The position numbers and the translations under genes were made by a program. The notes below the pieces were generated by a model. The model was not told where the DNA came from, made no database searches, and worked only from the letters and a program-made list of their open reading frames with translations. From Escherichia coli (GTDB lineage: Bacteria > Pseudomonadota > Gammaproteobacteria > Enterobacterales > Enterobacteriaceae), in NCBI RefSeq assembly GCF_045037415.1, contig NZ_CP173438.1: a DNA stretch of 64,000 bases, one strand, 5' to 3'. Every line of letters starts with the position of its first letter. Position 1 is the first letter of the stretch. Positions 46,750 to 47,112 of the stretch are shown here, piece after piece.

Positions 46750-47112
46750 GATTTTTACCTCGACATAATCTTTTAGCTGGGCCTTTGTTTCGTGACCCAT
46801 ATCACAAAATCAAGTATACACTAATTATTGAACTAATTAATACCACGCTAACTGTTTCAGTTGATACTAAGTGTTAAAAATGTGAATTTTAATAACAAAA
46901 AAGAATTAAAAACACGATCATTTATTGTTAATTATAGTATTTTCAATTAGATAATGAATTTTGCATAATGTGCTTTTTTACTATATGTATTCATTGTGTG
47001 AATGATATGTCGCAGTAAAACGCACTATTCGTTAAATGAATCGCAGGGGAAAGCAGTGGGTTGATAGGCAAAAGCAACATTTTCCCCGCCGCCAGAAGCG
47101 ACGGGGCAGAGA

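Follow-up and report, generated by a model that had tools for sequence, protein, structure and literature searches.

We propose that a strongly AT-rich tract between argR and yhcN in the Escherichia coli chromosome is the upstream regulatory region of a sigma-70 promoter of yhcN, in which a curved platform for H-NS is combined with CRP and marbox-like sites, and we put the probability of this reading at roughly 0.6. The tract occupies positions 46801-47000 of the analysed stretch of 64,000 nucleotides (the window) and falls within the 363-bp argR-yhcN spacer. That it is AT-rich is beyond doubt; the phasing of its A-tracts and its curvature are local and moderate. The spacer itself is already known as an H-NS-associated promoter island and as a SELEX target of CRP, RNA polymerase and H-NS. 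What we add is a cross-genus map of the region, in which the sequence drifts but keeps its spacer length, its A+T content and its predicted bend.

An earlier note on this DNA had described about 200 bp of A/T-rich sequence with phased A-tracts, of the curved type bound by nucleoid proteins, upstream of yhcN, and both the composition and the placement are borne out. Because yhcN (46486-46749) and argR (47113-47583) both lie on the minus strand, the tract sits in the spacer between them and upstream of yhcN, in agreement with the open reading frame list and with the annotation of strain SK1144 and K-12, from which the local gene set (aaeB, yhcO, yhcN, argR, mdh) is also taken. The G+C content of the tract is 22.5% (A 78, T 77, G 23, C 22) versus 51.4% for the 64-kb window, a level reached by only 0.03% of 200-bp segments; the minimum among the 63,801 segments scanned, 22.0%, is found at 46798-46997. 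The AT-rich core spans approximately 46801 to 47010, and with 22.5% G+C over 200 bp inside a 363-bp spacer the region has the AT-rich stretch of at least 300 bp that is looked for in H-NS regions and promoter islands. Other low-G+C segments of 200 bp in the window lie at 9918-10117 (0.32), 10390-10589 (0.30) and 18548-18747 (0.295). Features of the region are collected in Table 1.

Table 1. Features of the argR-yhcN region; coordinates are those of the window, and positions relative to the gene are counted from the inferred yhcN start.
Feature	Coordinates	Strand	Basis and remarks
yhcN CDS	46486..46749	-	Open reading frame list; 87 aa, DUF1471 stress-induced periplasmic protein; annotated in SK1144 and K-12
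Shine-Dalgarno GAGG of yhcN	46758..46761	-	Invariant in 13 genera, 8-11 nt before ATG
CRP site TGTGATATGGGTCACG (gene orientation), over the inferred start, about +1 to +16	46791..46806	.	TGTGA-N6-TCACG
-10 hexamer TATACT, sigma-70 promoter of yhcN	46813..46818	-	Invariant in 13/13 Enterobacteriaceae genera
Weak -35 TTAATT, 16-bp spacer to -10	46835..46840	-	TTAATT in 11/13 genera
Predicted intrinsic bend with phased tracts at 46876-46943, about -58 to -144	46864..46950	.	Three wedge models
Marbox-like site F AAAGCACATTATGCAAAAT, forward, about -152 to -170	46958..46976	-	2 mismatches to AYNGCACNNWNNRYYAAAY
Palindrome ATTCAC-N3-(A/G)TGAAT, exactly between marbox-like sites F and B	46989..47003	.	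ATTCAC-N3-GTGAAT here
Marbox-like site B AACGCACTATTCGTTAAAT, reverse relative to yhcN, about -213 to -231	47019..47037	+	1 mismatch to AYNGCACNNWNNRYYAAAY
argR 3' GC-rich hairpin, upstream boundary of the yhcN regulatory region	47084..47106	-	Folding prediction and 13 genera
argR CDS, upstream neighbour of yhcN on the same strand	47113..47583	-	Open reading frame list; SK1144 and K-12 annotation

The claim of phased A-tracts holds locally but not over the whole 200 bp. Seven A/T tracts at 46876-46943 have centre spacings of 9, 12, 10.5, 11.5, 10 and 9.5 bp (mean 10.4), a repeat of about 10-11 bp that covers only some 70 of the 200 bp. Over the full tract, AnTm tracts of at least 4 bases number 14 against 12.4 +/- 1.8 in dinucleotide-preserving shuffles (p=0.27), and the AA/TT periodicity in the 10-11.25 bp band is weak (p=0.18), with a top period of about 16.75 bp. 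An A-tract count at the level expected from composition and a periodicity short of significance favour a rival explanation, namely that the AT-richness comes from packed AT-rich specific sites, such as CRP flanks, the marbox-like sites and IHF-like and UP-like sequences, together with intergenic A+T drift, with H-NS incidental and the bend without a role.

Curvature, whose prediction had been suggested as a check, was calculated with our own implementation of three dinucleotide wedge models, the parameter tables of which are provisional; in controls the end-to-end ratio was 0.41-0.51 for synthetic phased A6 tracts and 0.96-0.99 for unphased or random sequence. All three models predict a moderate bend at 46864-46950, with a ratio of 0.86-0.89 and a rank between 2nd and 6th among the segments of the 64 kb. 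Against shuffles of 46791-47010 it has p=0.02-0.04, and p=0.04-0.08 in a second shuffle test, the latter being again a point for an incidental role of H-NS. The same bend is predicted for the K-12 spacer. The strongest bend of the 64 kb in all three models is predicted elsewhere, at 54632-54800 upstream of sspA (ratio 0.68-0.81 over 126 bp, within the rpsI-sspA spacer at 54473-54866), and it exceeds the yhcN one.

The divergent acrS-acrE region, to which the earlier note had likened the tract, resembles it in composition but not in the strength of the bend. This spacer (14893-15290), bounded by acrE, confirmed by translation, and by acrS, whose ATG is at 15291, has 30.7% G+C, and its minimum over 200 bp (15036-15235, 25.5%) comes next in the window after that of the yhcN tract. 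The bend predicted for it is weaker than that of yhcN, with 1-6% of window positions being more curved. The acrE and acrS genes are generally regarded as silenced by H-NS. Both are AT-rich regulatory spacers, although the acrE/acrS (envR) genes diverge from theirs, whereas argR and yhcN stand in tandem.

An ArgR scan of GTDB genomes provided 80 loci for comparison. In 12 other Enterobacteriaceae genera argR is followed immediately by a yhcN homolog, and the spacer measures 357-380 bp over all 13; the same order of genes, 414-461 bp apart, is seen in Yersinia aldovae, Acerihabitans and Pantoea persica. In 13 of the 15 relatives it is the spacer that contains the 200 bp of lowest G+C (0.24-0.34) in the 5.4-kb locus. 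The site map was drawn from a 13-genus alignment, a sliding conservation profile and motif scoring, with numbering from the inferred start at about 46806. A near-invariant block from -54 to +26 holds the -35, the -10 and the CRP site. The stretch from -134 to -64 is the least conserved (identity 0.52-0.79) and rich in indels, and its A+T content is 71-84% in all species, except for a short dip to 56% at about -114. According to the alignment, the tract appears to be in effect the whole regulatory region of yhcN, from about -194 to +6, which the earlier note had not recognised.

Curvature was compared over 16 loci. In the 300 bp upstream of the -10, the 84-bp segment with the greatest predicted curvature mostly has its centre 70-125 bp from the hexamer, and in most loci this segment is the maximum of the locus or within its top few per cent. 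Set against dinucleotide shuffles of -170 to -20, the bend is above the shuffle mean in 13-15 of the 16 loci and significant at p<0.05 in 5-8, the numbers varying with the model; these tests are not independent, since the loci are related. Excess curvature over shuffles was absent in E. albertii, Citrobacter sp. FP75, Mangrovibacter and Pantoea persica. Its absence from E. albertii, Mangrovibacter and Pantoea persica, as well as the presence of several conserved specific sites, would suit an incidental H-NS and a bend without function; however, that explanation sits poorly with a tract of the lowest G+C level in 64 kb, with a spacer that holds the minimum of its locus in nearly all relatives, with a least conserved stretch that is still AT-rich everywhere, with a bend above the shuffle mean in most loci and with the published association of H-NS (PMC3661553, PMC3946193). 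We consider it rather unlikely.

Within E. coli, the spacer (46750-47112) differs from that of K-12 at about 20 positions (about 5%), with the aligned ends of argR and yhcN identical. An 801-bp query around the tract has 100% identity to strain SK1144 and only 95-99% to most complete E. coli genomes, and the divergence of the spacer among genomes therefore points to distinct spacer alleles. In strain 14EC047 (NZ_CP024155.1) the match is confined to query positions 377-801, and yhcN with its core promoter, up to about window position 46776, is absent or interrupted. A spacer which diverges between identical gene ends, and which one predictor of foreign genes out of three scores as foreign (column D, Lawrence et al., in PMC3661553), might be seen as a relic of AT-rich DNA that was acquired horizontally and is subject to xenogeneic silencing. 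Such an origin is very improbable in view of a syntenic spacer of near-constant length in 13 Enterobacteriaceae genera as well as in Yersinia, Acerihabitans and Pantoea, and of a distribution that is anything but patchy, the query having a match in 5,425 of 5,426 complete E. coli genomes.

The core promoter combines the invariant TATACT with a weak -35, and the conserved block TTAGnnnGGTATTAATT, which contains TTAATT, has an identity of 0.83-0.86. The TATACT...TGTGA signature recurs at the Yersinia aldovae, Acerihabitans and Pantoea persica loci, and the promoter figure for Salmonella yhcN prints the TTAATT...TATACT...TGTGA stretch (PMC10268841 supplement). The accessible part of the Cappable-seq supplements (PMC4782308) contained no E. 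coli start-site coordinates near yhcN, so the start was placed by means of the -10 hexamer, the promoter figure for Salmonella and the distance quoted for Yersinia; it probably lies at about 46806, some 7 nt after TATACT. A start 7 nt after TATACT is 57 nt from the ATG, and this fits the Yersinia yhcN start quoted at -56 from the ATG (PMC13033631). Initiation at 46800, where an in-frame ATG falls within the CRP site, would lengthen yhcN to 104 aa (46486-46800, minus strand), but this extension is probably unused, because the conserved GAGG belongs to the annotated ATG at 46749 and indels in other genera interrupt the frame upstream of it.

A consensus scan also gave a promoter-like site, TTGAAA-18-AATGAT, with the -35 TTGAAA at 46941..46946 on the minus strand and a -10-like hexamer at 46917-46922. 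The corresponding TTGAAA-18-AATAAC was predicted for K-12 by Shimada et al. (PMC3946193) at what is here 46917-46946. The TGA of TTGAAA (T186, G187, A188) is invariant across genera, and the matching -10 lacks conservation. As a conserved main promoter this site was rejected, because its -10 region lies where the alignment is least conserved and rich in indels.

The same spacer, as argR(+)/yhcN(+), 3383263_333, is in the list of 78 "promoter islands" of Panyukov and Ozoline 2013 (PMC3661553), and by the offset of about 1,978 bp that we calculated between K-12 sequence versions this island corresponds approximately to window positions 46714-47047. Being AT-rich and over 300 bp long, it resembles the other H-NS islands of that work; however, most of those adjoin horizontally acquired genes, whereas the yhcN spacer is ancestral, with a position conserved across genera, and is distinguished by one clearly conserved productive promoter and by strong inducibility. 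The argR>yhcN spacer also has a peak in SELEX with RpoD holoenzyme and carries an 'HNS' flag (Shimada et al., PMC3946193). The listing as an island, an RpoD peak that comes with a different predicted promoter (TTGAAA-18-AATAAC) and promoter-like sites on both strands at 46917-46969 could mean that the spacer traps RNA polymerase unproductively at overlapping promoter-like sites, with the yhcN promoter being one of many. Yet such sites number 2 against 1.8 +/- 1.4 expected, a density obtained by a simple consensus scan, while the published definition of islands rests on PlatProm, and the scan itself missed TTAATT-16-TATACT because the -35 is too weak for it. With one promoter only conserved across genera, and with islands tied to foreign DNA (PMC3661553) while this spacer is ancestral, we find a polymerase trap quite improbable.

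The CRP site at 46791-46806 has one mismatch to TGTGA-N6-TCACA. Matches of this quality number 4 in the window against 1.75 expected, and a site with at most one mismatch is kept at a fixed offset from the -10 in 13/13 genera. In K-12 the corresponding site, ttCGTGAcccataTCACAaaa at 3385490, is bound in vitro with a Kd of 1.2 nM (PMC12871828), and yhcN is a CRP SELEX target (PMC3105977). A class II CRP-activated promoter downstream of the CRP site, for which GATTAT, at a distance of 41 bp from the centre of that site, would be the -10, was considered and rejected, as other genera have AATTCG or AATACG in its place. A near-consensus, invariant site centred at about +8.5 and bound with high affinity in vitro likens yhcN to promoters that CRP represses from a site over the start; it differs from them in that we deduce the repression from the position of the site, and our literature search for crp-dependent expression of yhcN found none. 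From this position, CRP would be expected to act as a repressor of yhcN.

Two matches to the marbox consensus AYNGCACNNWNNRYYAAAY lie further upstream, at 46958-46976 and 47019-47037. The forward site F has 0-3 mismatches in 13/13 genera at 158-170 bp from the -10, and the reverse site B at most 2 mismatches in 11/13 genera at 219-232 bp; over the window the consensus is not enriched (18 matches versus 16.8 expected). Site F stands 168-170 bp from the -10 in 11 genera, but in Escherichia the distance is 158 bp. Both E. coli and E. albertii are without 11-12 bp that the other 11 genera have at 46917-46930, in the middle of the AT-rich spacer, and this gap places the forward site about one helical turn closer. 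Class I sites are found 53-73 bp upstream in reverse orientation and class II sites 30-42 bp upstream in forward orientation (Martin et al. 1999 via PMC10268841). Those of yhcN, some 152-231 bp upstream of the inferred start, fall outside both definitions. In Salmonella, yhcN has a SoxS ChIP-seq peak and is filed under "other promoters", neither class I nor class II (PMC10268841). The yhcN region is therefore like the MarA/SoxS/Rob promoters in its two conserved 19-nt matches with 1-2 mismatches and in the SoxS peak of the Salmonella ortholog, but unlike them in that its sites are far from class I and class II positions. We would expect the marbox-like sites to act in E. coli.

The palindrome between the marbox-like sites is limited to Escherichia, Citrobacter and Enterobacter cloacae (5/13 genera). 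To our knowledge, it fits none of the ArgR, MetR, EvgA, AcrR, RcsB and Cra operators. A conserved TAT-N4-TTGATTTT at 46941-46950 (TCTAATTGAAAA in E. coli) is similar, at 1-2 mismatches, to the IHF consensus WATCAANNNNTTR taken as its reverse complement, and by this resemblance the invariant TGA block is a possible IHF-like site. Indirectly, yhcN is among the differentially expressed genes used for target choice in an ihfA knock-down strain (PMC10844884).

At the other end of the spacer, 13/13 genera have a GC-rich hairpin of 9-12 bp about 8-30 nt (mostly 8-15) after the argR stop, with the structure kept and the sequences different, and a compensatory C>T/G>A pair distinguishes this allele from K-12. 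The 65-nt stretch folds at a predicted -20.3 kcal/mol (z=-2.9). As the hairpin is followed by an A-rich run and not by a U-tract, it does not qualify as a canonical intrinsic terminator in either orientation.

A spacer of 363 bp is long for E. coli, and together with an open reading frame of 30 aa at 46785-46877 on the plus strand and the upstream ATG at 46800 its length may raise a suspicion of an unannotated small RNA or small protein gene. The conserved blocks are short, as is typical of binding sites, indels break the reading frames, and the tract has no terminator-like site. A search of Rfam over 45500-48500 at E<=1 gave a sole match, a meaningless one to a snoRNA model inside argR and none in the spacer, so that the idea of a hidden RNA was dropped; a hidden gene of either kind is extremely unlikely.

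Curved AT-rich upstream regions are known to nucleate H-NS at stress and virulence promoters, for example at proU, hns, virF and bgl. The yhcN region is similar to this type in the position of its bend upstream of a weak promoter, in an A+T content above 75%, in low basal activity and in large induction. It differs in that the bend is moderate, that no downstream regulatory element was identified, and that we infer the repression by H-NS.

For occupancy we relied on the tables printed in papers. The spacer is associated with H-NS by the ChIP-chip data of Oshima and Grainger and is unscored in the data of Kahramanoglou (PMC3661553); H-NS ChIP data, which the earlier note had proposed to consult, thus agree with it in two sets of three. 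Taken with the predicted bend, this association in K-12 supports the assignment of the tract to curved, nucleoid-protein-bound DNA. The H-NS nucleation motif TCGATAAATT has no match with at most 2 mismatches in 46801-47000 and one at 47029-47038. At one position, K-12 has ACGATAAATA, with 2 mismatches to TCGATAAATT, versus ACAATAAATG with 3 mismatches in this allele, K-12 being the closer to CGATAAAT. In the whole window, matches to TCGATAAATT with at most 2 mismatches number 90 versus 58 +/- 7.6 from shuffles, with one perfect copy at 63049-63058, and this excess is window-wide and not concentrated in AT-rich spacers.

Constitutive activity of the promoter, which would have spoken against the earlier description, is contradicted by expression data, since yhcN RNA has a log2 fold change of 9.08 (about 540-fold) at pH 4.4 versus 7.6 (PMC10746267). 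In the uninduced state there is little activity, and acrylic acid acts as an inducer (PMC6699081). In Yersinia pestis, SlyA binds the yhcN promoter region in vitro, and its predicted sites lie upstream of the -35, at distances of 42 and 89 bp (PMC13033631), which places them in the equivalent of the AT-rich segment. Our literature search returned no report of an hns mutation altering yhcN expression; PMC4390576 names yhcN only as an insertion site, and bioRxiv 2025.12.14.694247 and PMC10038027 contain nothing on regulation of the yhcN promoter.

From our analysis and the published data it would be logical to suggest the following mode of action for a regulatory region with a curved H-NS platform. 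The core promoter TTAATT-16-TATACT would pair a good -10 with a poor -35, and the curved AT-rich stretch of about 90 bp at 46864-46950 may serve as a platform for H-NS and possibly also for IHF or SlyA-type proteins. H-NS bound to the AT-rich segment would repress yhcN from the tract and keep it nearly silent in unstressed cells, and CRP over +1 to +16 would probably add a cAMP-dependent repression. The distal marbox-like sites are likely entry points for SoxS, MarA or Rob, which, together with acid and oxidative signals, might relieve the silencing; SlyA-type proteins are also plausible anti-silencers, as in Yersinia.

We may even suggest, as a speculation that we ourselves hold to be doubtful, that the curved AT-rich spacer is a selected architectural element, in which the bend brings SoxS, MarA or Rob bound at the distant, oppositely oriented marbox-like sites to RNA polymerase at a promoter with no good -35, or in which these proteins peel away the H-NS filament, perhaps with IHF at the invariant TGA block assisting the bend. 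The suggestion comes from a sequence that drifts while it retains its A+T content, its spacer length and its predicted bend, the centre of which lies some 90-105 bp upstream of the -10. If true, it would mean a third, long-range mode of marbox action.

Since the acid induction of yhcN ranks among the strongest in E. coli (PMC10746267) and its promoter has served as a biosensor (PMC6699081), a clear map of its control region should be useful, although of little significance beyond annotation. In evolutionary terms, an H-NS-bound island that is ancestral and not foreign, and whose shape and length are conserved across genera, suggests that the geometry of the DNA is under selection at a core stress promoter.
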